32,000 bases of DNA from Candidatus Methylomirabilis oxygeniifera (GTDB lineage Bacteria; Methylomirabilota; Methylomirabilia; Methylomirabilales; Methylomirabilaceae): assembly GCA_000091165.1 (NCBI GenBank), contig FP565575.1:1440001-1472000 (forward strand), read 5' to 3'. How positions within the stretch are numbered: the first letter of the stretch is position 1; every line of letters starts with the position of its first letter. A program made the translations under genes and the position numbers. The notes under the pieces are model-generated. The model did not search any database. It was given only the letters and a program-made list of their open reading frames with translations, and was not told where the DNA came from. This document shows positions 3,182-32,000 of the stretch, one piece after another.

Positions 3182-4558
3182 ATGAGAATGAAGTTGAAAC
3201 GGCTTACGGCAACCGGACTGGCAGTAACTGGGGCGCTTCTCCTAACCGCCGCAATCGCGGCGCCCGCGGCATGGGCTCAGGACGCCAAGGAACGAGAGAT
3301 CAAAGAGCTGCGGGCGCTGGTAGAAAAGCTGGGACAGCGTCTGAACCAGCTTGAAAATCAGGTTGGCTCCAAGAAGGACGTAGCCGCCGCGGCCGCGCCT
3401 GGAGCGCCCGGTGAGGCCGCTCAAAGCCTGGGCGATCGGATCAAGAATCTGGAAGAGGCGCTCAAGACGACCCCGATTTTGAACACCATGAAGGACTGGC
3501 AACTCGGGGGGCATGTTGCCGTCTCCTATAACTATAACTTCAGAGATCCGAAATCTCAGAACAATGGTCTCAGACTCTTCGATGACAAGGCCAACCAGTT
3601 TGACATCAACCAGGCCGAGTTTTACGTCGAAAAGCCGACCAGCGAGGCGTCGCCCGCCGGCTTTGGCTTTGACGTCGTCCTCGGGAGGGATGCGAAGAAG
3701 ATTCATTCAACAGGGCTTGGCGAAACCAATCAGCCGTTTGACCTGACGCAGGCCTATGTCACCTACAAGGTGCCCATCGGCAGGGGCCTGGATCTCAAAG
3801 GCGGAAAGTTCGTGACGCTGCATGGCGCCGAGGTGATCCGGCGAACCGGTAACTTTAACATCTCGCGGTCGATGGCCTTCTCCTACGCCATCCCCTTCAC
3901 CCACACGGGTGTGATGGCAACCTATCCTGTCACCGACTGGCTCTCGACAACCCTTGGTATTGTGAACGGCTGGGATAATACGGATGACAACAATAGGGGT
4001 AAGTCGTTCCATGGTGCAGCCACTGTTACCCCACCCTTCATCAAGGATCTGACACTGACCCTTGGCGGGTCATGGGGGGCCGAAACAGTCTCCGCTGCGC
4101 TCGACCCTGCTCGCGACGTGAATCGCAACGGTCCGAAGCGCGGCCTCATCGATTTCATCGCCACCTATAAGCCGATCGCGCCGCTCACCCTTACCCTGAA
4201 CTACGACTACGGGAGGCAGGAGGAAGCCTTCTTTGATGACGGCGATACGGCGGTCTGGCACGCGGTGGCAGCCTATGCCATGTACGATATTACCGACAGG
4301 CTCACCGTCGGCGTACGGGGCGAGTACTTCAAGGACCAGGATGGTTTTCGGCTCCCTGGTGCAACAGCGGGTAAAAATCTGTCGGTCTGGGGAACGACGC
4401 TTACCGGTCGATACAAGCTGTTCGATCACCTGTTCGCCAATCTTGAGTATCGGCACGATCAGGCCAGACACGGCCAAGAGATCTTTGACAGAGACAAAGG
4501 CGACGGAAAGGTCAAGTCGCAAAATACGGTTCAAGGTGAGTTGATCTACCAGTTCTGA
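3182..4558 (+). CDS. Outer-membrane beta-barrel porin with N-terminal signal peptide and coiled-coil segment
   Basis: 458 aa. Signal peptide MRMKLKRLTATGLAVTGALLLTAAIAAPAAWAQ, then a coiled-coil stretch, then alternating beta-strand pattern with aromatic girdle residues. The C-terminal ELIYQF ends in Phe, the OMP signature. Strong RBS GAGGGGGAGGG. It sits immediately upstream of amt. Confidence 0.7.
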   Translation: MRMKLKRLTATGLAVTGALLLTAAIAAPAAWAQDAKEREIKELRALVEKLGQRLNQLENQVGSKKDVAAAAAPGAPGEAAQSLGDRIKNLEEALKTTPILNTMKDWQLGGHVAVSYNYNFRDPKSQNNGLRLFDDKANQFDINQAEFYVEKPTSEASPAGFGFDVVLGRDAKKIHSTGLGETNQPFDLTQAYVTYKVPIGRGLDLKGGKFVTLHGAEVIRRTGNFNISRSMAFSYAIPFTHTGVMATYPVTDWLSTTLGIVNGWDNTDDNNRGKSFHGAATVTPPFIKDLTLTLGGSWGAETVSAALDPARDVNRNGPKRGLIDFIATYKPIAPLTLTLNYDYGRQEEAFFDDGDTAVWHAVAAYAMYDITDRLTVGVRGEYFKDQDGFRLPGATAGKNLSVWGTTLTGRYKLFDHLFANLEYRHDQARHGQEIFDRDKGDGKVKSQNTVQGELIYQF

Positions 4559-4602: not shown

Positions 4603-4655
4603 CGAATCTCACAGCGGCGTGTGGACGCGCGTTGAAGCAAGTGAGGAGGACAGAG

Positions 4656-6200
4656 ATGTTCACACAATTGAGGCGACAAGCGGTTCTGGTGGCGGTCTTT
4701 ATGGCCGTCATGTCCGTCGGTTTGACGTCCACCCTTTGGGCTCAGGAGGCGCCCGCACCGGCAGCCACAGCGGTCACCGAAACCGTCACCTTCACCAAGG
4801 AGATGGCTGACGCCATTAAGGATTACAAAATCGCAGTTGATACCCTCTGGGTCATGATTGCGGCATTCCTGGTCTTCTTCATGAATCTCGGATTCGCCAT
4901 GGTAGAATCCGGACTCTGCCGCGCTAAGAACACCGTCAATATCCTCTCTAAGAACTTCATTGTCTTTGCTATCTCCTCGCTTGCCTTCTATATCCTTGGA
5001 TGGGGACTCATGTTCGGCGACGGCAATGCCTTCGTGGGCCTGAAGGGACTGTGGTTCGCAAGCGGGGCCGACAACAGTCCGGCCATGGGCGACGCCTACC
5101 AGGGGGCCTATAGCGCCATCAACTGGACCGGTGTCCCGTTCTGGGCCAAATTCTTCTTTCAGCTTGTCTTCGCCGGGACGGCGGCGACCATCGTATCCGG
5201 CGCAGTGGCCGAACGGATCAAGTTTCATGCGTTCATTGTCTTCACATTCGTCATCGTCGGCGTCATCTACCCGGTTGTCGGTCACTGGGTCTGGGGCGGA
5301 GGGTGGCTGCAGAAGCTCGGCATGTGGGACTTCGCCGGCTCAACGGTTGTCCATTCGGTTGGAGGATGGGCGGCACTGGCCGGCATTCTGGTCCTGGGCC
5401 CCAGAATCGGGAAGTATGCGAAAGACGGCAAAGTCAATCCGATACCGGGCCACAGCATGACAGCCGCCACAATGGGCGCCCTCGTCCTGTGGTTCGGGTG
5501 GTTTGGCTTTAATCCGGGAAGTACGATGGCCGCGTCCTGGAACGATATCTCCCGCATTGCGGTGACCACGAACAGCGCGGCGGCGGCGGCGGCCTTCAGC
5601 GCCACCCTTGCTGCGTGGCTCCTCATCGGTAAACCCGATCTGTCGATGACCCTGAACGGAGCCTTGGCCGGACTCGTCGCCATTACGGCTCCCTGTGCGT
5701 ATGTGAGTGTCGGCAGTTCGGTCATTATCGGTCTCATTGCAGGGGTCGTGGTGGTCGCGGCAGTCCTGATGTTCGACAATGTGAAGATCGATGATCCCGT
5801 CGGCGCGACCTCCGTCCACCTGGTGTGCGGGATCATGGGCACCCTGTTCGTCGGTCTGTTCGCTCAGGACAGTATCATGCCCAAGACGACCGGCAACGGG
5901 CTCTTCTTCGGAGGTGGGTTGACGCTCCTGAAGGCTCAGGCGATCGCGGTCCTTGGCGTCGGTCTATTTTCCTTCACGATCTCACTGGCAGCCTGGGCCG
6001 TCATCAAGATGGTGATGGGGATACGCGTCAGTCCGGAAGAGGAAATGGAAGGGCTCGACTACGGCGAGCACGGGATGCTGGCGTATCCGGACTTTCAGTC
6101 GGTGACCCACTCCATAGGGACACCAGGATCAATTACGACGTCCGGATATCATGAGGTGAGCCCGGTCGCGATCCCAAAAAGGGCTCCGGCGCACCAATAG
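4656..6200 (+). CDS. amt: Ammonium transporter (Amt/AmtB family)
   Basis: Amt family motifs: DTLWVMIAAFLVFFMNLGFAMVESG, FQLVFAGTAATIVSGAVAER, GSTVVHSVGGWAALAG, LVLWFGWFGFNPGS, VHLVCGIMGTLFVGLF. ATG at 4656 is preceded by GAGGAGGA; the track start TTG 4632 is less likely. It has an N-terminal signal peptide and a roughly 60-aa C-terminal tail. Confidence 0.95.
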   Translation: MFTQLRRQAVLVAVFMAVMSVGLTSTLWAQEAPAPAATAVTETVTFTKEMADAIKDYKIAVDTLWVMIAAFLVFFMNLGFAMVESGLCRAKNTVNILSKNFIVFAISSLAFYILGWGLMFGDGNAFVGLKGLWFASGADNSPAMGDAYQGAYSAINWTGVPFWAKFFFQLVFAGTAATIVSGAVAERIKFHAFIVFTFVIVGVIYPVVGHWVWGGGWLQKLGMWDFAGSTVVHSVGGWAALAGILVLGPRIGKYAKDGKVNPIPGHSMTAATMGALVLWFGWFGFNPGSTMAASWNDISRIAVTTNSAAAAAAFSATLAAWLLIGKPDLSMTLNGALAGLVAITAPCAYVSVGSSVIIGLIAGVVVVAAVLMFDNVKIDDPVGATSVHLVCGIMGTLFVGLFAQDSIMPKTTGNGLFFGGGLTLLKAQAIAVLGVGLFSFTISLAAWAVIKMVMGIRVSPEEEMEGLDYGEHGMLAYPDFQSVTHSIGTPGSITTSGYHEVSPVAIPKRAPAHQ

Positions 6201-6224: not shown

Positions 6225-6812
6225 ATGCGAAAAACGGTAGTGATCATCGACGATAGCCCTAGATCGCGGGGACCATTGGGCAATGTACTCACACGGCTTG
6301 GGTTCGAGGTGGTCGCAGAGGGAGCAAACGGAGCTGAAGCTCAACGCCTCGCCCAAATGCTGAAACCTGATGTGCTATTTCTGGCGGTGAGTCTCCCGGA
6401 TATGGATGGCCTGACAGTGGCTGCTCATATCCTGGAGACCGTACCGCTTCCGATTCTGATCCTGAGCAACCACCTCGACGAGGGGTTGATCCGCCGAGCC
6501 AAGAAGGTCGGAGTGATGGCGCACCTGCTGAAACCGCTGCGTGAGGAGGAGTTGCTGCCGGCTATCGAACTGGCGATCTCCCGGTTCGAAGAGTGCAACA
6601 CCCTCCGAAAAGAGAACGCAGACCTCAAGCGAAACCTTGAGGATCGGAAGTTGATCGAGCGCGCAAAGGGGATTCTGATGGAACGGGAACGGATCTCCGA
6701 ACAGCAGGCGTTTGCGCGGATCCAAAAAACCAGCATGAACACGCGGCGATCAATGGCCGAGATTGCGCAGGCTATCCTGCTGAGCGAAGCGGTCATCGGT
6801 AGGGCGTGTTAG
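6225..6812 (+). CDS. ANTAR-domain RNA-binding regulator with a receiver-like (pseudo-receiver) N-terminal domain
   Basis: REC-like fold (VVIIDDS..., ILILSNH, LLKP) followed by a coiled coil and an ANTAR core LEDRKLIERAKGILMERERISEQQAFARIQKTSMNTRRSMAEIAQAIL. The phospho-acceptor position reads PDVLFLAVSLPDMDG, i.e. Ala where Asp is expected. Confidence 0.85.
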   Translation: MRKTVVIIDDSPRSRGPLGNVLTRLGFEVVAEGANGAEAQRLAQMLKPDVLFLAVSLPDMDGLTVAAHILETVPLPILILSNHLDEGLIRRAKKVGVMAHLLKPLREEELLPAIELAISRFEECNTLRKENADLKRNLEDRKLIERAKGILMERERISEQQAFARIQKTSMNTRRSMAEIAQAILLSEAVIGRAC

Positions 6813-6932: not shown

Positions 6933-7394
6933 ATGTCAGGGGTTCTCCACCCTCTCTCCGTACATTTGCCTATCGCCATGCTGTTCATGGCGTTTATGAC
7001 GATGTGTTATTGGCTGGTCAGGGGGTTGGCCACGTCGGTCTTTGAGAATCGGATCTACAGCCTGACGCGCTTTAATACCGCTGCCGGGTTGGTGTTCGTC
7101 CTCCTTTCCATGGCCACAGGATTCCGGGATGTCCTCGCCGGTTATTGGATCGCGTTCAATTCGCCTCTAGGAAAGTGGTTGTATGTCAAAGTCGTCCTGG
7201 CGCTGCTGATCGTCATCACGTACAGCGCCTTCCTCTGGCAGAGCCGCAAGAAGCCCCAGTACCTTCAAGAAGATCCAAAGATCATGACCTGGTGTCTCAC
7301 CACTCAACTGGTGGGCTTCCTGCTGGTGTTGACCGTCACCGCGCTCGGAACCATGCTGGTGTTCTATCCCCATCTCCTGGCGTACAGCGGATAA
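6933..7394 (+). CDS. Small integral membrane protein, DUF2231-like (4 predicted TM helices)
   Basis: 153 aa. The N-terminal HPLSVHLPIAMLF motif and four hydrophobic segments resemble DUF2231 proteins. The assignment is tentative. Confidence 0.5.
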   Translation: MSGVLHPLSVHLPIAMLFMAFMTMCYWLVRGLATSVFENRIYSLTRFNTAAGLVFVLLSMATGFRDVLAGYWIAFNSPLGKWLYVKVVLALLIVITYSAFLWQSRKKPQYLQEDPKIMTWCLTTQLVGFLLVLTVTALGTMLVFYPHLLAYSG

Positions 7395-7475
7395 GATGAT
7401 CGGACGACATGGCGCGCATCCGGCGTTTCTCATATCACGGACTTGGGCGACTCAACGGATGAAAGGAATAATCGC

Positions 7476-8804
7476 ATGAACCGAAAGCCCGCGCAGATCG
7501 TGGTATTAGGAGGAGGGTTCGGCGGCCTGTACGCCGCCATGACGCTTCAGCGAGAACTGGCCGGGTCCGACCTGGCTCAGGTGACGCTTGTGGATCGGCG
7601 TAACTATTTCACCTTTACGCCGTTCCTGCCGGAGGTGGCGGCAGGAACCCTCGGTCGGGCGCATGTCACCTACCCCTTGCGGTTCCTGGCTCAGAAAGGC
7701 GAGTTTCGCTTCATTCAGGGAACCGTTCAGGCCTTTAACCTGGTCAAGCGTACGATCCGAACGGAGACCACAACCATCCCCTACGATTATCTGATTGTGT
7801 CGCTGGGGGGCGTACCCTCGTTCTTCGGCAACCCCCAGATCGAGGCCCATGCGCTGACGCTCAACTCGGTTGATGATGCGCTTGGCATTCGAAACCATGT
7901 GATCAGGCTCTTTGAACAGGCCGTAGTCGAGCCGGATCCGATCCGGCGGCGCCAGCTCTTGACCTTTGTCGTGGCCGGAGCCGGGCCCTGTGGCGTTGAG
8001 CTGGCCGCTGAGTTGCACCACCTGATCCGGACCGCCCTCCTCAAGTTCTATCCGGTCGATCCATCCGAGATCAGAATCGTGTTAGTGTCCAAGGGCGAAC
8101 GGATTCTCCCTGACTTCGCCGGCAAGCTGGCGGACACCGGACAGCAGGCGCTGATCAAACGAGGGATTGATGTCAAGTCGAACACTCGGGTGACCGGGGC
8201 AAGTGCGGAATATGTGGAGCTAAACGATCGCGAGATCATCCCCACCCGTACTACCATCTGGGCGGCCGGGGTTACTCCGAATCCCGTCCTGGCCCTGTTG
8301 CCGGCCACAAAGAGCCCGCAGGGAGGTATTGTCGTCGATGAGTTCCTCAAGATCCCTGAATTCCCGGAGGTGTATGTCATCGGGGATGGCGCATCCGTCA
8401 TGGACCGACGCCAGGGGCGACCGTATCCGGCCCTGGCGCCGGTAGCCATTCGTCAAGGGATTCGGGCCGCCGGCAATATCATGAATACCCTCCAGGGAAG
8501 AGCCAGGGAGCCGTTTCGATTCGACTTTACCGGTAATATCGTGGGGCTCGGTTGCGGGATGGCGCTTGTGAATCTACTGGGCATCAAGTTCCATGGCCGA
8601 CTGGGGTGGTGGCTCTACCGGATGGCCCACCTGCAGCGACTGGTCAGCTTCAGGAACAAGGCGTCACTCGCCCTGACCCTGGCGCTCAATACGATCTTTG
8701 ATCGGGACATCTCCTGCGAAACCTGGCCGGAGACCGACCAACGCATGAACAGCACGAGGGCATCATCGACCCTCCCGAATTCAGGCGCACCGGTCGCCTC
8801 CTGA
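7476..8804 (+). CDS. ndh: Type II NADH dehydrogenase / NAD(P)/FAD-dependent oxidoreductase (NDH-2)
   Basis: Two Rossmann motifs, IVVLGGGFGGLYAA and FVVAGAGPCGVELAAEL, plus WAAGV and VYVIGDGA near the C-terminal part. ATG at 7476 is preceded by GAAAGGA; the track start TTG 7443 is less likely. Confidence 0.85.
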   Translation: MNRKPAQIVVLGGGFGGLYAAMTLQRELAGSDLAQVTLVDRRNYFTFTPFLPEVAAGTLGRAHVTYPLRFLAQKGEFRFIQGTVQAFNLVKRTIRTETTTIPYDYLIVSLGGVPSFFGNPQIEAHALTLNSVDDALGIRNHVIRLFEQAVVEPDPIRRRQLLTFVVAGAGPCGVELAAELHHLIRTALLKFYPVDPSEIRIVLVSKGERILPDFAGKLADTGQQALIKRGIDVKSNTRVTGASAEYVELNDREIIPTRTTIWAAGVTPNPVLALLPATKSPQGGIVVDEFLKIPEFPEVYVIGDGASVMDRRQGRPYPALAPVAIRQGIRAAGNIMNTLQGRAREPFRFDFTGNIVGLGCGMALVNLLGIKFHGRLGWWLYRMAHLQRLVSFRNKASLALTLALNTIFDRDISCETWPETDQRMNSTRASSTLPNSGAPVAS

Positions 8805-9947: not shown

Positions 9948-10054
9948 ATCGGGATACGGGAGAGCAATCCAAGTCTGAAAATCCAAGCGGCACAATCCTT
10001 CATTGATGAGCACTGCAATGAAAGCCGCAACGCTTGGTACGGGCGCTGCGGGTC

Positions 10055-10092
10055 TTGTCTTATACACCTGATACTGCTATATTGTGTGTATA
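10055..10092 (+). promoter_or_regulatory. Putative vapBC promoter with overlapping operator
   Basis: TTGTCT (10055-10060), 17 nt, then TATATT (10078-10083). A 7-bp inverted repeat TATACAC (10061-10067) / GTGTATA (10086-10092) brackets the -10 box. Confidence 0.35.
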
Positions 10093-10111
10093 GCATAAAG
10101 GAGGTATGTCG

Positions 10112-10312
10112 ATGCTCAGAACCAATATCGAACTTGACGAAGAACTCGTGAACGAGGCGATGAAGCTTACTCATCTGAAGACTAAGAAGGAACTTGTCAA
10201 CTACGCCCTCAAAGAACTTGTGCGCAAAGTCAAGCGAAGGGATCTTCTCTCTTTCGAGGGTAAGGTGAAATGGGAAGGCAACCTCTATGAGATGAGGAAA
10301 AGCAGAGCGTGA
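10112..10312 (+). CDS. vapB: VapB-type antitoxin
   Basis: MLRTNIELDEELVNEAMKLTHLKTKKELVNYALKELVRK is the typical VapB N-terminus. ATG 10112 has better spacing to AAGGAGG than the track start 10106. Its stop overlaps the vapC GTG (GTGA). Confidence 0.75.
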   Translation: MLRTNIELDEELVNEAMKLTHLKTKKELVNYALKELVRKVKRRDLLSFEGKVKWEGNLYEMRKSRA

Positions 10313-10707
10313 TCCTCGTGGATACCAGTGTATGGGTGGACTTCCTGAGGGGCGAGGACTCCTCCCAACGCTGGGTGCTCCACAGACTCATCGAGGACGA
10401 AGCAGATATCTCGATTACTGAGATTATCTTTACGGAAATTCTCCAGGGGATCAAGCACGACGGAGAATTTCAGGCAATAAGGGACTATCTCCTCGAGTTT
10501 CCAATCTATAGGCCGAAAGACATCGAGACCTACCTTCATGCGGCCAGGATTTACAGGGACTGTCGAAAAAAAGGCAAGACAGTGAGGAAGACGGTTGACT
10601 GCATCATCGCCGCCATTTGCATTGAAAACGATCTTACCCTCCTTCATAAAGACAGCGACTTCGACCTCATTCAGGCGTGTACGGGGCTTCAGGCGGTCGA
10701 GGTGTAG
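10309..10707 (+). CDS. vapC: VapC PIN-domain ribonuclease toxin
   Basis: ILVDTSVWVDFLRG (first acidic PIN residue), ...TEIIFTEILQG, ...VDCIIAAICIENDLTLLHKDSDFD. There is a 4-nt overlap with vapB. Confidence 0.85.
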   Translation: MILVDTSVWVDFLRGEDSSQRWVLHRLIEDEADISITEIIFTEILQGIKHDGEFQAIRDYLLEFPIYRPKDIETYLHAARIYRDCRKKGKTVRKTVDCIIAAICIENDLTLLHKDSDFDLIQACTGLQAVEV

Positions 10708-10828
10708 GCATACGATGCAACGGACAGGGAAAACGCTTCCTGCCTGAACCAACGGGTTGTCAACCCTCTTGCCCGTAGGACAGCGAAGACGAACGCTCGC
10801 TCGACGTGATACTGCTGGCGGAGCCACA

Positions 10829-12571: not shown

Positions 12572-12578
12572 CCGAGTT

Positions 12579-12610
12579 GTCGGGTTACGCTGCGCTAACC
12601 CGACCTACGG
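12579..12610. repeat. REP-like palindromic intergenic repeat, copy 2 (GTCGGGTTACGCTGCGCTAACCCGACCTACGG)
   Basis: 31/32 identical to 2138-2169. It lies between convergent genes (ends at 12571 and 12630), where its hairpin could act as a bidirectional terminator. The 12577..12789 ORF (MSGYAALTRPT...) is a spurious translation of it. Confidence 0.6.
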
Positions 12611-18135: not shown

Positions 18136-18858
18136 TCAGATAATCTCACCGGCTCGTACAATGATGTGAGCCACCTCCGCCAGCTTGATGTTGCGATGTT
18201 GACTCTCTTGCTGCAATTTTTGCATGGCCTCCGGCTCGGAGAGCTTTAGTCGCTCCACGAGGATTCTTTTCGCCTTCTCGATCAGCTTTCGCTCCCCCAA
18301 AACTGTCTCTAACTTTTTCGTCCGTTGCTCCAGGAGATGTACCTTTGTCTTGAGTCGTGGAATGGTTTCTTCTGAGACGTGCTTCGTATTGCCTTTTGGG
18401 GTGGAGCGGAGATGGGTAGCGGAGAGAGGGGCAGCGTGTTGTTCGACACACGTCTCGGTCTCGGTGGCGTGTTTCACGAATATCTTGAAATCACAATGCT
18501 GCTGCCCCGCAGCGATTCGCCGCTTGAAGATAACTTGTCCGTAGCCAAAGAGATCAACCGCAATCCGCCCGAGACTTTCGCACCAGAGGTGACAGAAACT
18601 CTCCTGTTCCGCAACTCCTTCGCCGGCAAGGCAGTTGGTGCTGGTGAAGCGGATATGATCGCTCGCAAGCCGGTAGCGTAGATCCCAGGTCAACTGGTTC
18701 GCCAGCCAGACGACGGCCTCAGCGTATTCGGCTGGAGTAAAGACCCCTCGGTGCTTACTTCGCGCCTCCCCGGTTAAGCCGCTCAAGCTGCAGGCGACGG
18801 TGCGCAGGACTCGCTGTGTGGTTGGTAGATCGTTCTGCTTACCCAGCATCGCGGCCAA
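18136..18858 (-). CDS. Receiver-less ANTAR-domain protein, paralog 1 (Cys-containing V4R-like N-terminal domain + coiled coil + ANTAR)
   Basis: C-terminal ANTAR: GERKLIEKAKRILVERLKLSEPEAMQKLQQESQHRNIKLAEVAHIIV. N-terminal: DHIRFTSTNCLAGEG...FCHLWCESLGRIAVDLFGYGQVIF...HCDFKIFV. Homology to paralog 2 continues about 25 codons upstream of the first canonical start, so the start is uncertain. Confidence 0.8.
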   Translation of the reverse strand: MAAMLGKQNDLPTTQRVLRTVACSLSGLTGEARSKHRGVFTPAEYAEAVVWLANQLTWDLRYRLASDHIRFTSTNCLAGEGVAEQESFCHLWCESLGRIAVDLFGYGQVIFKRRIAAGQQHCDFKIFVKHATETETCVEQHAAPLSATHLRSTPKGNTKHVSEETIPRLKTKVHLLEQRTKKLETVLGERKLIEKAKRILVERLKLSEPEAMQKLQQESQHRNIKLAEVAHIIVRAGEII

Positions 18859-19594
18859 GTATCCGACAAGGTCTCGTATGATGAAACTGCGAGCTAACTC
18901 AGCGCGAGCGTCAAGCGCGGAACCGGTCGGTCTTTAGCGCTTGAACAACAGACTACTCTGTCTTAGCATGGGTCGTTCCCTTGACTTGATCTGAGTCTGG
19001 CGACCTGACGAGGGTTCGCGACATCGCGGTTGGCCGATTGACGTGTGCCTGCACGTCACCCGGCACGAATCGGGTTAAGGGGAACGCGACCATAGCCGAT
19101 AGCAAAACCGTAGGAACACTCAGGTGTTGTGGCGGTGATCGGTGTTCGGTCACTGCCAGGCGGAACGAATGACCGCCCTGCGGAGAGGCTTCGCCGACCG
19201 GATAGCCGGTGAACGAAGCGAGACCATAGATCGTCGTGCGCAAGACGCAGGACCGCACTGTCGCGGAGTCTGCTGAGCGCGGAGTCTGAATTCCTCGAGC
19301 GCTGATGGGGGCGCCATGGGGAGGGTGATGATGCCCGCACATGCCGACGTATGCCTCCGAACTCAATCACGTAGCAGTCCGGTTCCTTCTCCCCCTGAAG
19401 TCCAGCTCTTCAACGCGCGAGCATCACGCCATCCTCGTCTGGTCCGTGAGGCCATGGACCGCTTCGTCTCCGGCTTGCCACGAAGAGGCCGCTCCTCGCC
19501 AAAACACCACGAGAGATGGCCCGTCTACGGGCTGAAGTACCTCATAGGCTGCCCCACGCGACTTAACACTTTAACACCGGAGGGAGGAAGGACA

Positions 19595-21316
19595 ATGACC
19601 ATGCAATGGTTCAAGAATCTCAAGACGATGACCAAGTTGATGCTGGGATTCGCCGTAGTGGGCGTGATCGCGGGCGGAGTGGGCTACCTCGGCATCAGTA
19701 ACATGGGGAGTATCAATGCTAATGTAGGGGACGTGTACCAACACCAGCTCCTCCCCATCAAGATCATGGCCGAGGCCCGGGGGCAAACCCACCGGATGCG
19801 GGGTTTCGTGATCCAGCACATGCTGGAGCGCGACAAAGGCGCAATGGACAAGATTGCTGCCACTATCCAGGAATCCCAAGGACAGGTGGAAGAGCGGATT
19901 GGCCGCCTCGAGAAGATGGGTTTGACCCTTGAGGAGCGGGAGGCGCTGGGAACGTTCAAGGCGGCTTTCGCTGCATATAACAAGACGCGAGACGACAAGG
20001 TTCTGGCCTTCAGCAGTCAGGGCAAGAAGGAGGAGGCCTACGCCGCGGCCAAGACAGAGGGTGCGGAGCGATACCAGGCGGTCGTGGCCCGCATCAATGC
20101 CCTCATCGACCTCAAGGATAAAGCCGCCAAAGGTCGCTACGACGAAAGCCAGGCCACCTATAGCCGCTCCCGGACCATGATGATTGGGTTCGCTGTGGGG
20201 GGTCTGTTGACGGGCCTCGTATTCGGGTATTTTATTGCGATCCTGATCACCGGTCCGTTGAGCCAAACCGTGGCGGTCCTCAAGGACATCGCGGAGGGCG
20301 AGGGCGACTTGACGAAGCGACTGACAGTCCACAGTCGCGATGAGGCCGGCGAACTGGCTCGCTGGTTCAACACGTTCATGGACAAACTCCACGAGATCAT
20401 CGGGCAGGTGCGCATGGCCGCGGCGCAAAACGCCTCCACCTCACAACAACTCGCCGCCGGCAGCGAAGAACTGTCCAGTGGTACCCAGGAGCAAGCTGCC
20501 TCAATCGAGGAGACGGCGGCCTCCCTGGAGCAAATGACCTCCACTGTGAAGCAGAATGCGGACAACGCCCGCGAGGCGAACCAGATGGCGGTGTCGGCCC
20601 GATCGACGGCCGAGCAAGGCGGAGCCGTAGTCCAGACGGCTGTCACCTCGATGGAGGCGATCCGTGAGTCCTCCAAGCAGATCGCCGCGATCATCACGAC
20701 GATCGATGAAATCGCCTTTCAAACGAACCTTCTGGCGCTCAACGCCGCGGTCGAAGCCGCCAGAGCGGGGGAGCAGGGTCGGGGCTTTGCGGTGGTCGCC
20801 AGTGAGGTTCGGGCGCTTGCTCAGCGCTCGGCGGTCGCCTCCAAGGAGATCAAGACGCTGATCACTGACTCGGTAACCAAGGTGGAGGAGGGGGCGCAAC
20901 TGGTCAATCAGTCCGGGAAGACCCTGACCGAGATCATGGCCGGTGTGAAGAAGGTCGCCGATCTCATCGCCGAGATCTCCGCCGCCTCTCAGGAGCAGGC
21001 TCAAGGGATCGAGCAGATCAACAAAGCGATAACCCAGATGGACTCGGTCACTCAGCAAAATGCCGGCCAGACTGAGGAGTTCAGTGCCACAGCTCAATCC
21101 ATGGCAGCGCAGGCGGAGGAGCTCTCGGCGCTGGTGGCGAAGTTCAAGCTGGCGCGAGAGGCTGCGATCAGCCGTCAGCCGTCAGCGATCAGCTCTGAAT
21201 CGTCTCGGAAGGTGGTCCCCCTAAAAGGGAAGGCGCGTGGTAAATTCGCGGCGCCTAAGGCAGTGGCGGCGGCCACCGGGACCGATACGGCGTTTGGAAC
21301 ATTCGAGGAATTCTAG
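19595..21316 (+). CDS. Methyl-accepting chemotaxis protein (4-helix-bundle sensor, HAMP, MA signalling domain)
   Basis: ATG 19595 follows [41 protein letters not shown] (TM1), a second TM, a HAMP domain, and the highly conserved hairpin [43 protein letters not shown]. The track ORF start at 19316 adds about 90 aa of non-protein-like sequence. Confidence 0.9.
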
Positions 21317-24536: not shown

Positions 24537-25403
24537 TCACGGCTGCGCAGCCTCACGGAGGCGCCGGATCGTCCGAGTCGCGTCCGCTATCAGCCGTTCC
24601 TGCAGGCTGAGGCAACCGGATAAGTGGTCTTTCGAGAATGTGCCCCTCGCAATCGTAAGCTGCATCAGTTGTGTCTGCCCCAGAACACCCATCAACGCAT
24701 TATTTAAGTCGTGCGCAACGCCGGCCGCCAACTCGCCCATCGCCCGAAGTCGCTCGGCGGCCACCAACTGATTCTGGCTGCGCCGCAGCTCTTCCAGACT
24801 CGCCTCCAGTCGCTTGGTCGTAAGCCGGAGATCCTCGTAGATGCGGGCATTGATCACCGCCATGCCCACCGCAGCCCCGATGGCGGTGACGAGTTTCGTG
24901 TCGTCCTCCGTAAAGACGCGCATCCGCCGCGTGGCGATATCGAGCACACCGATGACCTCCCCTTTAGCCCTGAGAGGGAAGGCCGCGAAGGTCTTAAAGC
25001 CGGCCGCGACCACCTTGTACCGGAGAAAGCGCGGGTCCGCCGCCAGGTCTGGGATCACGACAACCTCCCCGGTCTGCGCCACGCGCCCGGGAATCCCTTC
25101 CCCCAGCGCGAACCGGGTGCGTTCGCCGAAGGCCTCCGGTTCCAGGCCGAGCTGTCTGGTGAGGCAGACCGCTTGTGTCGCCGTATCGAGAAGCCAGATC
25201 TCTCCGGCCTCCATACCCATAACCTTTAAGGTGGCATCGAGGGTCTGATCGAGGACATCCGGAAGCGCGAGCACACCACCAATGATCCTCCCTACCGTTC
25301 CAATGGCCTCCAGATGTCTGTTGCGGCAGGCGTATTGCTTCACCTGCTCCTCTAACACGGCGTAGATTCGAGCCTGCTCGATCGCCACCCCCTCGTCCAT
25401 CAT
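24537..25403 (-). CDS. Stand-alone GAF + DHp (HisKA) protein lacking a catalytic ATPase domain
   Basis: 288 aa. GAF core: GEGIPGRVAQTGEVVVIPDLAADPRFLRYKVVAAGFKTFAAFPLRAKGEVIGVLDIA. A coiled coil follows, then an intact H-box, AAERLRAMGELAAGVAHDLNNALMGVLGQTQLMQL. The protein ends about 45 aa later with no N, G1 or G2 boxes. Confidence 0.8.
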   Translation of the reverse strand: MMDEGVAIEQARIYAVLEEQVKQYACRNRHLEAIGTVGRIIGGVLALPDVLDQTLDATLKVMGMEAGEIWLLDTATQAVCLTRQLGLEPEAFGERTRFALGEGIPGRVAQTGEVVVIPDLAADPRFLRYKVVAAGFKTFAAFPLRAKGEVIGVLDIATRRMRVFTEDDTKLVTAIGAAVGMAVINARIYEDLRLTTKRLEASLEELRRSQNQLVAAERLRAMGELAAGVAHDLNNALMGVLGQTQLMQLTIARGTFSKDHLSGCLSLQERLIADATRTIRRLREAAQP

Positions 25404-28452: not shown

Positions 28453-28962
28453 TCACAGCATCTCCCCGGCCTGCACAATGATCTGCGCAACCGCTGCCAG
28501 CCTGAGGTTGCGCGCCTGGCTCTCCCGCTGCAGTTTTCGCATCGCCTCGGCCTCAGATAGTCGCAGCCGCTCCATAAGGATCCCTTTCGCCTTCTCGACC
28601 AGCTTTCGCTCCTCGAGCGCCGTCTCCAGCTCCCGCGTCCGCTGTTCCAAATACCGGACCTTCGCCTGGAGCTGGCGCACCGTCGCCTCGGAGAAGCGCT
28701 CCGGTTGGCCGCCGGGCTCGGGGGCGGGGCCGCCCTGCGCCGGCCGGTCGACGGCGACGGCCCCCGTCTCGGCCTCCGCGGTGGGCTGCAGGTACAGCCG
28801 GACGTCGCAGCCCTCGCGCGCCGCCGTGTCCCGCGGCGCGACTACCACCTTGCCGTAGCCGAAGCGCTCCGCGGCTATCCGCCGGAGGCTCTCCCACCAC
28901 AGGTGGCAGAGGGGCGCCGTCTGTCCGCCCTCGTCGCGGCATATCGTACAGGTGAAGCGGAT
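28453..28962. repeat. Near-identical duplication, copy A (3-prime 510 nt of ANTAR paralog 2)
   Basis: By eye, 508/510 identical to 31491-32000 at offset 3038. Mismatches are at 28457 and 28495. Identity starts exactly at the stop codon and runs to the window edge. Confidence 0.9.
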
Positions 28963-29226
28963 ATGATCGGGCGCCACCCGGTACTGCATCGCGCCGCCCA
29001 GTTGCTGCGCCAGTCGGACGACGGCCTTGGCGTAGGTGTCCGGGGTGAGGGGTGACGGCGCGTCCTCGCACGGCGCCTCCGCCATACGCAGGAGGCGGGC
29101 GGCGGCGCGCAGGGCCTGCTGCCGTCCCTGCGAGTTGCCCCACTCGTCCAGCAGGCCCGCCGTGTGCCCGATGAAGTCGCGCACAAAACCGCTTGGGGCC
29201 GTCTCGCTGTGCCTGGGCTTGCTCAT
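28453..29226 (-). CDS. Receiver-less ANTAR-domain protein, paralog 2 (V4R-like N-terminal domain + coiled coil + ANTAR)
   Basis: ANTAR: EERKLVEKAKGILMERLRLSEAEAMRKLQRESQARNLRLAAVAQIIV. N-terminal: DHIRFTCTICRDEGGQTAPLCHLWWESLRRIAAERFGYGKVVV...GCDVRLYL. ATG 29226 is preceded by GGAAGGAGG. The track start 29259 abuts a terminator U-tract and is unlikely. It is followed 73 nt later by kinase 2. Confidence 0.8.
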   Translation of the reverse strand: MSKPRHSETAPSGFVRDFIGHTAGLLDEWGNSQGRQQALRAAARLLRMAEAPCEDAPSPLTPDTYAKAVVRLAQQLGGAMQYRVAPDHIRFTCTICRDEGGQTAPLCHLWWESLRRIAAERFGYGKVVVAPRDTAAREGCDVRLYLQPTAEAETGAVAVDRPAQGGPAPEPGGQPERFSEATVRQLQAKVRYLEQRTRELETALEERKLVEKAKGILMERLRLSEAEAMRKLQRESQARNLRLAAVAQIIVQAGEML

Positions 29227-29259
29227 CCGATTGCTCCGCCTCCTTCCGTCTGCGCCCAT

Positions 29260-29295
29260 AAAAAAAGCCTTTCATCGATATGCCGATGAAAGGCT
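29260..29295 (-). terminator. Intrinsic terminator-like hairpin (element A), immediately 5-prime of ANTAR paralog 2
   Basis: Minus strand: AGCCUUUCAUCG-GCAUAU-CGAUGAAAGGCU followed by UUUUUUU. The stem is a perfect 12 bp with a hexaloop. Confidence 0.6.
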
Positions 29296-29563
29296 CCCTC
29301 GCCTGTTCCCGCCCGGCCCTCGTCAGCCGGATGGGAGAATCCGCGCGTCCTGACGGCCATGCCGCCCTCAGGACGTCATCAACTTACTGACCGATCAACC
29401 GCGCGATCGGTAAACTGTTCCGCCTGGCAACAACCGTGCGTGGCGCAGCGACGGACCATCCTAGATCTATATACCGACAGATTCGGGTCTCCTCTTGAGG
29501 CCCATTCCTCCGGTCAACGAATCATCACGACGTCGGAGAAGCCGTAGGCGGCTCCGATGAGAG

Positions 29564-30256
29564 TCAGTCTGCCGTCCGTGTTCGCTCCATGGCGGTCAGT
29601 TGAGCCTGGGTCTGCTCCAGTTCGCTCAGCTTTGTCTCCAGTTGTCGAGTCGCGACCTCCAATTGCTGTGTCGCGACCCTGAGTCGCTCGTACAGGTGGG
29701 CGTTGGTCACCGCCATCCCCACCACCGCCCCGATAGCGCTCAAGAGTTGCACATCGTCCTCTGTGAGAACGCGCGTCCGACGCTCGGCGACATTGAGGCA
29801 CCCGGTAACCTCCCCCTTGCCCAGCAGGGGGAAGGCCACGAAGGTCTTAAAGCCGGCCGCGACCACGCTGTGCCGGAGAAAACGAGGCTCTTCCGCCAGA
29901 TCGGGAATGACCACAGATTCCCCGGTTTCCACCACCAGCCCGGGAATCCCTTCACCAGGACCAAACCGCTGACGCTCCCAGAAGGCCTCCGAATGCAGAC
30001 CACGATGTCTGGCCAGGCGCACCTCGCCCACAGCCGGATCGAGGAGCCAGATCTCCCCGGCCTCCATCTCTGTGACCGTCAAGGTGGCATCGAGGACCCG
30101 ATCGAGGACCTCGGTGAGGGCCAACGAGCTGCTGGCGGCTTGCCCAACCCTGCTGAGGGCCTCGAGTTGGTTCGTGCGTCGTCTGTATTGCTCGACCTGC
30201 GCCTGCAACGCGGCGTCGGATCGGGCTTGCTCCGCGGAGAACGTCTCTTCCGGCAT
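29564..30256 (-). CDS. Stand-alone GAF protein with C-terminal coiled coil, truncated just before the H-box
   Basis: 230 aa. GEGIPGLVVETGESVVIPDLAEEPRFLRHSVVAAGFKTFVAFPLLGKGEVTGCLNVA. It ends ...QAQLTAMERTRTAD, where paralogs read LVAAERLRAMGELAAGVAHD. Confidence 0.75.
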   Translation of the reverse strand: MPEETFSAEQARSDAALQAQVEQYRRRTNQLEALSRVGQAASSSLALTEVLDRVLDATLTVTEMEAGEIWLLDPAVGEVRLARHRGLHSEAFWERQRFGPGEGIPGLVVETGESVVIPDLAEEPRFLRHSVVAAGFKTFVAFPLLGKGEVTGCLNVAERRTRVLTEDDVQLLSAIGAVVGMAVTNAHLYERLRVATQQLEVATRQLETKLSELEQTQAQLTAMERTRTAD

Positions 30257-30465: not shown

Positions 30466-30510
30466 TCCGGAAACACAAAAGCCTTTCATCGAAGATCCGA
30501 TGAAAGGCTT
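30466..30510 (-). terminator. Intrinsic terminator-like hairpin (element B), same stem as element A
   Basis: Minus strand: AAGCCUUUCAUCG-GAUCUU-CGAUGAAAGGCUU followed by UUGUGUUUCC. The stem is 13 bp with a hexaloop. The 12-bp core stem is identical to 29266-29295. Confidence 0.55.
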
Positions 30511-30714
30511 CATCGCCCTCTCTCACGACACCGCCATCAGCACCGTTGGCAAGAGATCCACGCCCTGAGAGTGGTATCACCCTCAGGCCTCGATTGCCTG
30601 AGAGCCGTCAACTACGAGTGTGCACAACTCGACCGCTTTGTCACCAACCTCGCGTCGAGTTGAACGACAGTATAGATGACATCGTGCGCGACTGTCAAGT
30701 TCCCGTCGCGCCGC

Positions 30715-31461
30715 CTAATTCACATTATAAGAGCTGAGCATCTGCAGCGCCCTTAACGCGTTGTGGCAGTCGCGGGCGATGCCGGTCTCCGGCTCGTCCG
30801 TCGCCCGCAGTCGCGCTGTGGCGACTAACTGATTCTGGGTGCACTGCACCTGTTCAATCTTTGCCGTAAGCTGCTCGATAGAACGCCTGAGTTCCTCGTA
30901 CAGGCAGGCGTCCGCCGCAACCATTCCCACGGCTGCTCCGATCGTGATCAGGAGGCGTAGATCTGCCTCTGTGAACGAGCGCGCCCGACACGCGGCGATA
31001 TCGAGGGAACCGATGACCTCCCCTTTGGCCCGCAGCGGGACGGCCACGAAGGTCTTGAAGCCGGCCGTGACCACGCTGCGCCGGAGAAAGCGAGGCTCTT
31101 CCGCCAGATCGGTAATGACCACGGGCTCCCCGGTCTCCACCACCAGCCCGGGAATCCCTTCACCGACGGCAAACCGCGTGCGTTCCAGGAAGGCCTCCTC
31201 GATAAGGCCGTAATGCCGCTCGACGCACACCTCTCCTCGGATCCTATCGAGCAGACAGATCTCCCCGGCCTCCATCTCCAGAATCGTCACGGTCACGTCG
31301 AGGATCCGCTCGAGAATTTGATGGATCGGCAGCGAACCGGTGATGATCTGGCCGACAATGCGAAGAGCCTCCAGGTGTCTGGTGTGGTAGAGGTGCTGTC
31401 TTACCATGGTCTCTACGTCAGCATACAACTTAGTCCCCTTCACCGTCGCCCCCTCCTCCAT
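30715..31461 (-). CDS. Stand-alone GAF protein with a degenerate, His-less DHp remnant
   Basis: GEGIPGLVVETGEPVVITDLAEEPRFLRRSVVTAGFKTFVAVPLRAKGEVIGSLDIA. The C-terminus LVATARLRATDEPETGIARDCHNALRAL aligns to the H-box with His replaced by Arg. ATG 31461 follows GGAAGGAGG, and its N-terminus MEEGATV.. matches the paralog N-termini MMDEGVA.. and MPEETFS... Confidence 0.75.
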   Translation of the reverse strand: MEEGATVKGTKLYADVETMVRQHLYHTRHLEALRIVGQIITGSLPIHQILERILDVTVTILEMEAGEICLLDRIRGEVCVERHYGLIEEAFLERTRFAVGEGIPGLVVETGEPVVITDLAEEPRFLRRSVVTAGFKTFVAVPLRAKGEVIGSLDIAACRARSFTEADLRLLITIGAAVGMVAADACLYEELRRSIEQLTAKIEQVQCTQNQLVATARLRATDEPETGIARDCHNALRALQMLSSYNVN

Positions 31462-31490: not shown

Positions 31491-32000
31491 TCACGGCATC
31501 TCCCCGGCCTGCACAATGATCTGCGCAACCGCCGCCAGCCTGAGGTTGCGCGCCTGGCTCTCCCGCTGCAGTTTTCGCATCGCCTCGGCCTCAGATAGTC
31601 GCAGCCGCTCCATAAGGATCCCTTTCGCCTTCTCGACCAGCTTTCGCTCCTCGAGCGCCGTCTCCAGCTCCCGCGTCCGCTGTTCCAAATACCGGACCTT
31701 CGCCTGGAGCTGGCGCACCGTCGCCTCGGAGAAGCGCTCCGGTTGGCCGCCGGGCTCGGGGGCGGGGCCGCCCTGCGCCGGCCGGTCGACGGCGACGGCC
31801 CCCGTCTCGGCCTCCGCGGTGGGCTGCAGGTACAGCCGGACGTCGCAGCCCTCGCGCGCCGCCGTGTCCCGCGGCGCGACTACCACCTTGCCGTAGCCGA
31901 AGCGCTCCGCGGCTATCCGCCGGAGGCTCTCCCACCACAGGTGGCAGAGGGGCGCCGTCTGTCCGCCCTCGTCGCGGCATATCGTACAGGTGAAGCGGAT
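31491..32000 (-). CDS. Receiver-less ANTAR-domain protein, paralog 3 (N-terminus beyond the window edge)
   Basis: Its translation is identical to paralog 2 except for the last residue (GEMP versus GEML). The 31491..31886 track ORF is the in-window part, and the frame stays open to position 32000. Confidence 0.8.
   Translation of the reverse strand: MRFTCTICRDEGGQTAPLCHLWWESLRRIAAERFGYGKVVVAPRDTAAREGCDVRLYLQPTAEAETGAVAVDRPAQGGPAPEPGGQPERFSEATVRQLQAKVRYLEQRTRELETALEERKLVEKAKGILMERLRLSEAEAMRKLQRESQARNLRLAAVAQIIVQAGEMP
31491..32000. repeat. Near-identical duplication, copy B
   Basis: See 28453-28962. Direct orientation, 3038 nt apart. Confidence 0.9.

Follow-up and report, generated by a model that had tools for sequence, protein, structure and literature searches.

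The window analysed here is a 32,000-nt stretch of the Candidatus Methylomirabilis oxygeniifera genome (contig FP565575.1, positions 1,440,001 to 1,472,000; positions below count from its first letter), and our subject is a reverse-strand gene at 28453-29226 together with the RNA leader in front of it. We propose, with a probability of roughly 0.6, that this gene encodes a one-component, receiver-less ANTAR antiterminator with a divergent MetOD1 domain as input module; that such a protein is ligand-gated is a reasonable inference. The main features of the gene are given below. Residue numbers refer to the longest open reading frame (ORF) at the locus (28453..29259 (-), 268 amino acids (aa)); subtraction of 11 gives positions in the 257-aa protein.

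28453..29226 (-), coding sequence of the MetOD1-like-ANTAR protein (paralog 2, copy b), 257 aa; from the ORF listing, ATG at 29226
28789..29199 (-), N-terminal MetOD1-like domain, ~140 aa; from profile comparison, the AlphaFold2 (AF2) model, Foldseek and profile matches in the PDB
28696..28788 (-), Pro/Ala/Gly-rich low-complexity linker, predicted disordered; AF2 predicted local distance difference test (pLDDT) <50, residues 166-185
28459..28695 (-), coiled-coil helix and ANTAR RNA-binding domain (Pfam match 28474-28632); PF03861 E 1.9e-18, AF2
28939..28941 (-), codon of Cys107 (Cys96 of the 257-aa protein), just past strand beta2; invariant in 52 sequences
28906..28908 (-), codon of Cys118 (Cys107 of the 257-aa protein), at the N-terminus of the long helix (CHLW); invariant in 52 sequences
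28807..28809 (-), codon of Cys151 (Cys140 of the 257-aa protein), at the start of the last strand; invariant in 52 sequences

The ANTAR domain (PF03861, gathering score 27.3) was found at full length, with 66.4 bits over profile positions 2-54 of 54, and is likewise at full length (60.1 bits) in paralog 1, encoded elsewhere in the window. In the AF2 model residues 189-267 form a continuous helix (pLDDT 77-94), with a predicted coiled coil, the segment that serves dimerisation in ANTAR proteins, ahead of the three-helix ANTAR bundle. A first-pass annotation, made from the letters alone, had described a Cys-bearing N-terminal domain joined to ANTAR; this holds, and no receiver domain is present. 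Pfam matches nothing in the N-terminal half of the protein, and no NCBIfam model covers it.

Identity and predicted fold of the N-terminal domain

An alignment of ten family members spans the entire domain; its invariant positions include C107, C118, C151, D98, H99, H119, W121 and E123. This bears out the conserved block noticed earlier in the two paralogs, whose quoted peptides are present verbatim, that of paralog 2 in 28453-29226 (-) and that of paralog 1 in 18136-18858 (-). Judged by these alignments, conservation of the N-terminal block among the ANTAR paralogs is far beyond chance.

The sequence comparisons lead to MetOD1 (PF18546, gathering score 23.8 bits). A search with an N-terminal-domain profile (A2) against 1.84e9 representative proteins gave 76 matches at E<=1e-3, and 68 of the 75 remote homologs scanned match MetOD1 (best E 8.8e-21). 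When the window subfamily was compared by hhalign with 25 stand-alone bacterial MetOD1 proteins, the two profiles matched with 97.8% probability (E 9.2e-13) and the three Cys aligned. Some relatives of the same length and architecture, with ANTAR at the C-terminus, score above the Pfam cut-off (P0012 with 46.2, P0045 with 42.9 and P0011 with 24.7 bits), and P0009, the ortholog of paralog 1, is also matched. Because of the profile-profile match, the 68 remote homologs and the relatives over the cut-off, we conclude that the domain is, as far as sequence can place it, a divergent MetOD1 and not V4R proper. The close family is rare, with only 8 clusters among 5.8e9 proteins, all of them with ANTAR; family-specific peptide patterns detected no relative in GTDB representative genomes.

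In the remote homologs the domain is N-terminal as well (around residues 10-165) and precedes HisKA/HATPase (11 and 13 proteins), sigma-54 AAA+ (11), a GerE helix-turn-helix (HTH; 2), ANTAR (6) or PAS/GAF-kinase combinations. This placement in front of kinases, sigma-54 activators and HTH domains of LuxR type is the behaviour of an input domain. V4R holds the same N-terminal position in XylR/DmpR-type activators. Many homologs are stand-alone proteins of ~180 aa in Nitrospira, planctomycetes and proteobacteria. Stand-alone MetOD1 proteins (P0084-P0147) are common in bacterial metagenomes and occur also in Nitrospira moscoviensis, Maioricimonas, Roseibium and Parvularcula; on many of them we saw the JGI label 'predicted ArsR family transcriptional regulator' with no HTH match, which hints that the label was derived from ArnR/Rv2621c-type proteins with the same sensory domain.

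Across 52 aligned sequences, among them remote homologs with 17-27% identity, the three cysteines C107, C118 and C151 remain invariant. The expectation that three or four Cys would be conserved held for these three; C104 is common and not invariant, being Ser in paralog 1 and Gly in P0004. H-NOX domains are recognized by a haem-ligating His and a Y-x-S-x-R motif; no such motif is among the invariant columns, and HNOB (H-NOX, PF07700) had no Pfam match in the family.

The AF2 model of the domain, built from the 52-sequence alignment, has a pLDDT of 77 and a predicted template modelling score (pTM) of 0.70. The modelled topology, alpha-alpha-alpha-beta-beta-alpha-beta-beta with a long fourth helix, fits the two-layer alpha/beta group, which has N-terminal helices and a long helix against which a four-stranded sheet packs. 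A Foldseek search of the PDB with this model returned BcsD/CeSD, TRAPPC3/Bet3, H-NOX and soluble guanylate cyclase (sGC) at E 6e-4 to 1e-2, and the same proteins, together with the PoxR V4R domain, were reported as structurally similar to the crystal structure of Thorarchaeota TRAPPC3 (PMC10933270). Independently, a domain profile searched against the PDB matched Thor-TRAPPC3 (7yh3) at E 0.0056 over residues 7-136, which is the whole domain, with the Cys aligned; the 7yh3 sequence itself matches MetOD1 in Pfam at E 8.9e-4, beside its TRAPP match. As the Foldseek set coincides with the published one and the 7yh3 match is independent of it, membership of the modelled domain in the V4R/H-NOX/Bet3 fold group is well supported. 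Other searches of the PDB by sequence, with the domain or a 10-sequence profile, gave only designed helical repeats and RhoGEF noise, and a profile of the 25 stand-alone MetOD1 proteins gave no match. Foldseek with the full-length model retrieved mostly helical and designed proteins.

Leader RNA and gene neighbourhood

Directly upstream of the coding sequence we observed a structured RNA element, a second copy of which precedes a neighbouring GAF gene. A covariance model of the element (R1) has 86 positions. The features of the leader in the window are as follows.

29257..29342 (-), leader copy T1, directly upstream of the ANTAR coding sequence; R1 88.4 bits, E 2.9e-21; fold z-score -6.4; covariation
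29313-29330 (-), T1 hairpin P1, hexaloop GACGAG
29289-29306 (-), T1 mini-hairpin P2, hexaloop GAGGGA
29264-29297 (-), T1 intrinsic terminator GGAGCCUUUCAUCG-GCAUAU-CGAUGAAAGGCUUU followed by U7
30471..30556 (-), leader copy T2, ahead of the GAF gene 29564-30256; R1 87.5 bits, terminator scan
30527-30544, 30503-30520 and 30478-30511 (-), P1, P2 and terminator of T2, the hairpin near-identical to that of T1
30669..30698 (-), sigma-70-like promoter TTGACA-18-TATACT, 11/12 matches; identical in a related genome
19286..19340 (+), degenerate leader copy (P1 loop GAUGGG, P2 loop GAUGAU) without terminator; R1 20.3 bits, E 1.4e-5, filters off

The 3' end of the promoter is located 113 nt upstream of the first base of T2 (30556), and the order of promoter, leader, terminator and gene is seen both in the window (30698-30256) and in the related locus L001 (6749-6960; GCA_040960765.1). 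In all, 15 copies with E below 1e-10 were found in five loci. The element is present two to three times in every related locus examined, with its U-tract always facing the downstream gene (ANTAR, GAF2 or kinase, or divergent methyl-accepting chemotaxis protein (MCP)). Copies that were not in the seed lie directly 5' of other MetOD1-ANTAR genes (L001 6846-6936 with 56 bits, L087 315-401 with 46.5 bits and L088 1786-1874 with 45.3 bits); those of L087 and L088 precede typical-MetOD1 proteins, with only about 24-34% identity to our protein in the N-terminal domain. Weak matches were also seen at L001 17888-17966 (-), 5' of a second hybrid kinase, and at L001 18584-18653 (+), 5' of the paralog-1 ortholog.

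In P1 and the terminator 99% of cells are paired, with compensatory changes in 7 pairs; the covariation score is 0.34 versus 0.16 in shuffled alignments (0/500 shuffles reach it), and slid controls are 35-56% paired. Folding of the nascent RNA without the 3' arm of the terminator predicts the P2 mini-hairpin in most copies. The 3' arm of P2, GCCUUU, is at the same time the 5' arm of the terminator, so P2 and terminator are mutually exclusive; the inner four pairs of P2 are formed in 15/15 copies. Both loops are hexaloops of the form G-A-N-G-R-N, with G4 kept in 15/15 copies in both. Two hexaloop hairpins, the second overlapping the terminator, are also the architecture of known ANTAR targets, whose loops have A1 and G4 (PMC3369931). 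We found no Rfam match to the element at gathering score or E<=1, and a strict canonical A1/G4 dual-hexaloop search of the window yielded three unrelated sites only. Two further pairings were considered and abandoned: an antiterminator GAUGA/UCAUC around the loop AGCCUU, dropped because position 3 of its stem is C or G in 7/12 copies, and base-pairing between P1 loop and terminator arm, which some copies allow, but not consistently.

The leader bears on the start of the gene as well. The true start is almost certainly ATG 29226, since the Shine-Dalgarno sequence GGAAGGAGG precedes it and it matches the start (MSKPR) of the ortholog P0001; the first-pass annotation had used the same coordinate. 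The ATG further upstream, at 29259, falls within the U-tract of the terminator hairpin, and GTTGG stands in its place in the closest related genome, whose protein starts with MSKPR. Automatic annotation from this unconserved ATG would therefore append 11 spurious residues (29227-29259, -).

The degenerate copy at 19286-19340 (+) overlaps the first ATG of the MCP ORF 19316-21316; as the 4HB_MCP domain begins only at residue 101, the real MCP start may lie further downstream. Perhaps this copy is a variant target that works on translation or without a terminator.

Around the gene, and in a second place of the window, the following genes are relevant.

31491..32000 (-), second copy of the same gene (copy a), cut by the window end; 99.6% DNA identity to 28453-28962, translation
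30715..31461 (-), stand-alone GAF protein 1; GAF_2 E 9e-20, starts 29 nt past the stop of copy a, start set via L001
29564..30256 (-), stand-alone GAF protein 2; GAF_2 E 8.8e-21, a neighbour conserved in L001, L002 and L006
25467..28379 (-), hybrid sensor kinase (dCache-HAMP-PAS-HisKA-HATPase-REC), downstream of the ANTAR gene; Pfam scan
18136..18858 (-), paralog 1, MetOD1-like plus ANTAR, more MetOD1-like than paralog 2; PF03861 60.1 bits, PF18546 E 5.7e-5

A recurring order, divergent MCP, MetOD1-like-ANTAR, one or two GAF genes and hybrid kinase, was observed in L001, L002 and L004. L001 has the same gene order as the window and the extra ANTAR copy too. In L002 the order is the same, with the divergent ORF a 29-aa stub at the contig end that is not identifiable; in L004 the MCP is confirmed, one GAF gene stands alone, and the hybrid kinase itself includes GAF. 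L005, too, carries just one stand-alone GAF gene. For L006, which keeps the order, we confirmed the MCP and counted two GAF genes, the ORF in the kinase position being cut by the contig end and unscanned.

The ANTAR copies within a genome are more alike (99.6% identical in the window, 97% in L001) than those of different genomes (95%), and the two L001 copies (6960-7739 versus 10001-10783) differ only within the first ~13 residues. Such a pattern of identities suggests gene conversion or concerted evolution of the duplicated regulator. Comparison of leader with coding identity between the window and L001 did not discriminate, both being about 93-96%.

Paralog 1 does not have the ATG of its ortholog P0009 (which starts MANKHARTELVRSF...). 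The homologous codons are in frame at 18859-18905 (-) and include no ATG, GTG or TTG ahead of the TTG at 18858; judging from the reading frame, paralog 1 may have a shortened first helix or may be translated from a non-canonical start.

Some other observations concern the rest of the window. A classical REC-ANTAR response regulator, the fourth ANTAR protein in 32 kb, is encoded at 6225-6812 (+), 25 nt downstream of an ammonium transporter gene (4632-6200, +) that has a BBP2 porin gene (3182-4558) ahead of it; it is possibly a nitrogen-related antiterminator. The gene at 24537-25403 (-) encodes a 288-aa protein with GAF and a weak HisKA match, without ATPase domain, and is paralogous at the DNA level to both stand-alone GAF genes (73-76% identity). 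Also, a 33-nt direct repeat of 97% identity (2137-2169 versus 12578-12610, +) is found in or near intergenic DNA, the two units ~10 kb apart.

Putative mechanism and alternative readings

A possible sequence of events begins at the cysteines. In the V4R domains of sigma-54 activators and in archaeal V4R/TRAPPC3 proteins, a metal site built on Cys links the sheet and the long helix beside a ligand cavity, and Thor-TRAPPC3 is zinc-bound (PMC10933270). By analogy, the Cys triad of our protein, probably with a fourth ligand, would hold a metal centre in the same place; if a structural Zn, it would have its parallel in PoxR and Thorarchaeota TRAPPC3, and if an Fe-S (iron-sulfur) cluster, in ArnR. 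Ligand binding, redox change or cluster damage at the site or cavity would alter dimerisation or free ANTAR from autoinhibition. The ANTAR dimer might then bind P1 and P2 of the nascent leader, and the bound P2 would withhold GCCUUU from the terminator stem, allowing RNA polymerase to read through. Read-through would raise expression of the ANTAR gene itself (autoregulation), of the GAF and hybrid-kinase genes and of the divergent MCP gene.

Candidate signals, named by analogy, are redox or nitric oxide (NO) acting via an Fe-S cluster, or a small hydrophobic ligand in a Zn-stabilised cavity. The three Cys of ArnR carry an NO-sensitive [4Fe-4S](Cys)3X cluster, and its authors linked the fold to 7YH2/7YH3 (PMC12343034). 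That the Cys3(+His) site here carries such a cluster as well, making the protein a redox- or NO-responsive RNA-binding one-component switch, is an analogy that we consider quite doubtful in its specifics.

Several observations weigh against the proposed reading. The protein itself has no PF18546 match at E<=10, and paralog 1, with 23.6 bits (E 5.7e-5), stays 0.2 bits under the cut-off. The window subfamily has C-x and LCHLWWES where typical MetOD1 has its hallmarks CPFG and LCxMTSS, which accounts for the Pfam model missing the protein. In the domain model the two N-terminal helices have a pLDDT of only 56-67; the Foldseek scores are weak (TM 0.38-0.47), and no PoxR, MopR or DmpR V4R chain is among the top 50. 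On the RNA side, the two outermost P2 pairs frequently fail to form, a single P2 pair has a compensatory change, and the loops fail the canonical A1 rule, having A at position 2 and G at 4. Finally, another protein could bind the leader, e.g. the REC-ANTAR regulator at 6225-6812, and the conserved GAF neighbours and hybrid kinases are alternative candidates for the real sensor.

The last point leads to a serious alternative, modelled on the pairs AmiC with AmiR and NasS with NasT, which we regard as unlikely to be the correct one: the N-terminal domain could be mainly a dimerisation or docking scaffold with a structural metal, while the GAF proteins or kinases sense the signal and sequester or release the antiterminator. 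Every locus has a GAF-only gene about 30-95 nt past the ANTAR gene, and the kinase comes next where the locus is long enough; moreover, the dimer interface of Thor-TRAPPC3 is formed by two N-terminal helices (PMC10933270), and RNA binding by ANTAR requires dimerisation (PMC3369931). However, many kinases, sigma-54 activators and LuxR-type regulators lack a GAF partner domain and have this domain, at the N-terminus, as their sole candidate sensor, the distant MetOD1-ANTAR locus L088 has no GAF neighbour, and the invariant Cys, His and Asp point beyond a scaffold.

The hairpins could also be ordinary terminators or a lineage repeat palindrome, with the protein acting elsewhere or on translation. 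T1 and T2 are located downstream of genes too and could end those transcripts, and the loops misfit the A1/G4 rule. Exact-hairpin scans of metagenomes detected no loci and then six, none of which encodes a relative: the bare palindrome CCTTTCATCG-N6-CGATGAAAGG is present in 6 contigs (L089-L094), and no MetOD1-ANTAR gene was found in the DNA fetched around it. Still, these contigs reach only 20-38 bits, versus 45-96 bits over the full 86-nt model for the copies beside MetOD1-ANTAR genes; the P1 covariation is strong; the element tracks the gene family down to the about 24-34% N-terminal-domain identity mentioned above; and it occurs between promoter and first gene with no same-strand gene upstream (L001 6749-6960 and the divergent intergenic regions of L002, L004 and L006). 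We thus find this explanation distinctly improbable.

Taken literally, the first-pass annotation would make this a true V4R domain (PF02830), with an aromatic or hydrophobic effector like those of XylR, DmpR, MopR and PoxR. MetOD1 is N-terminal in sigma-54 activators, as V4R is in those of XylR type, and the two share a fold group. A V4R zinc motif of the MopR/PoxR type consists of a Cys in the helix, Glu-x2-Cys in the next strand and a Cys ~8 residues on, in the last strand; here the strand after the long helix reads GKVVVAPRD, with neither Glu nor Cys, and the extra Cys sits before the helix, as in MetOD1. The order in our alignments, before the helix, at the N-terminus of the helix and in the last strand, is thus not the cysteine pattern that had been likened to V4R. 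A three-Cys cluster is nevertheless common to MetOD1 and the V4R domains of PoxR and MopR, and MetOD1 was described as similar to HNOB, V4R and ATC hydrolase, sharing its secondary structure with HNOB (Galperin et al. 2018, PMC5847659). The Pfam search for V4R was negative, with no PF02830 match at E<=10 in any of the 10 family members, and V4R is outside the 25 most frequent of the 42 Pfam families matched by the 75 remote homologs at E<=1e-3. Of the V4R-like claim there stands, according to profile and model, a small Cys-bearing domain of the V4R/H-NOX/Bet3 fold group; its comparison with V4R structures likewise came out mixed, with TRAPPC3/Bet3 and H-NOX matched and the Foldseek top 50 lacking V4R. 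We hold a genuine V4R domain to be very improbable.

A catalytic, not sensory, domain related to the C-S-bond-cleaving ATC hydrolase was raised as a possibility for MetOD1 by Galperin 2018 (PMC5847659), and 2/75 remote homologs also match PF14196, but with no ATC_hydrolase match among the 10 family members and a consistent N-terminal fusion to signalling outputs, which fits a sensor, it is hardly credible.

Relation to known systems and significance

The one-component antiterminator that we favour has likenesses in several described systems. Its input domain shares with MetOD1 as described (PMC5847659) the length of ~140 aa, three Cys in matching positions and the same predicted secondary structure. 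That domain was introduced as 'methanogen output domain 1', located C-terminally in archaeal response regulators, whereas the domain studied here is bacterial, N-terminal and ahead of the outputs; the window subfamily differs from typical MetOD1 also in adding the invariant D98, H99, H119, W121 and E123. The two-layer alpha/beta structure, the role of N-terminal sensor and, by analogy, the metal site are features it has in common with V4R domains of sigma-54 activators (PoxR, MopR, DmpR) and with archaeal V4R/TRAPPC3 proteins (5fs0, 7yh2, 7yh3); unlike the V4R activators it has no PF02830 match, different ligand positions and an RNA-binding output rather than an AAA+ ATPase.

ArnR of Corynebacterium glutamicum, with a winged HTH and a TRAPPC3-like domain (PMC12343034), also has three conserved Cys and a conserved His nearby. 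The Cys spacing is 14 and 30 in ArnR, 11 and 33 here and about 13 and 33 in typical MetOD1, the likeness being drawn by description and spacing only. ArnR binds DNA, while the ANTAR protein is of an RNA-binding type, and an Fe-S cluster in the latter is pure conjecture.

Among ANTAR proteins the closest in design are NasR (NIT-ANTAR) and other one-component antiterminators, in which a receiver-less sensor is joined to ANTAR with a coiled-coil linker; the target RNAs of EutV and AmiR, too, have two small hexaloop hairpins, the second overlapping the 5' arm of the terminator (PMC3369931). Our system is unlike NasR, EutV and AmiR in its sensor fold, in its loops (G-A-N-G-R-N with U-G or C-G closing pairs versus A1...G4) and in its putative regulon, which comprises signalling genes (ANTAR, GAF, hybrid kinase, MCP) and not a catabolic or assimilatory operon.

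The ANTAR partners listed in the 2012 (PMC3369931) and 2025 literature are REC, GAF, PAS, NIT, AmiR_N, SpoIIE, STAS and PilJ. The input domain is outside this set, as the first-pass annotation had supposed for the classical partners. In the searchable literature MetOD1 is named in only three or four papers, and we found no link to ANTAR; its function was still termed unknown in 2024. In 2025, however, 149 ANTAR architectures were counted, and since Pfam detects MetOD1-ANTAR in relatives, the architecture may already stand among them. We characterize the system as of a known kind, a one-component ANTAR antiterminator with a dual-hexaloop/terminator target; new are the MetOD1 input (divergent and missed by Pfam), the loop variant of the RNA motif and the set of regulated signalling genes.

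In bacteria the domain occupies the input position, which recasts MetOD1 as a sensor family and provides a tractable bacterial system in which its signal could be found. The compact, covarying leader, absent from Rfam, gives a direct read-out for testing that sensor, and the GANGRN loops widen the sequence rules for ANTAR-target searches. If the Fe-S reading were true, this would be the first function for MetOD1 and the first Fe-S-gated antiterminator, one that would set the levels of a chemoreceptor, two GAF proteins and a hybrid kinase via GANGRN dual hexaloops, an ANTAR-motif variant not described before.

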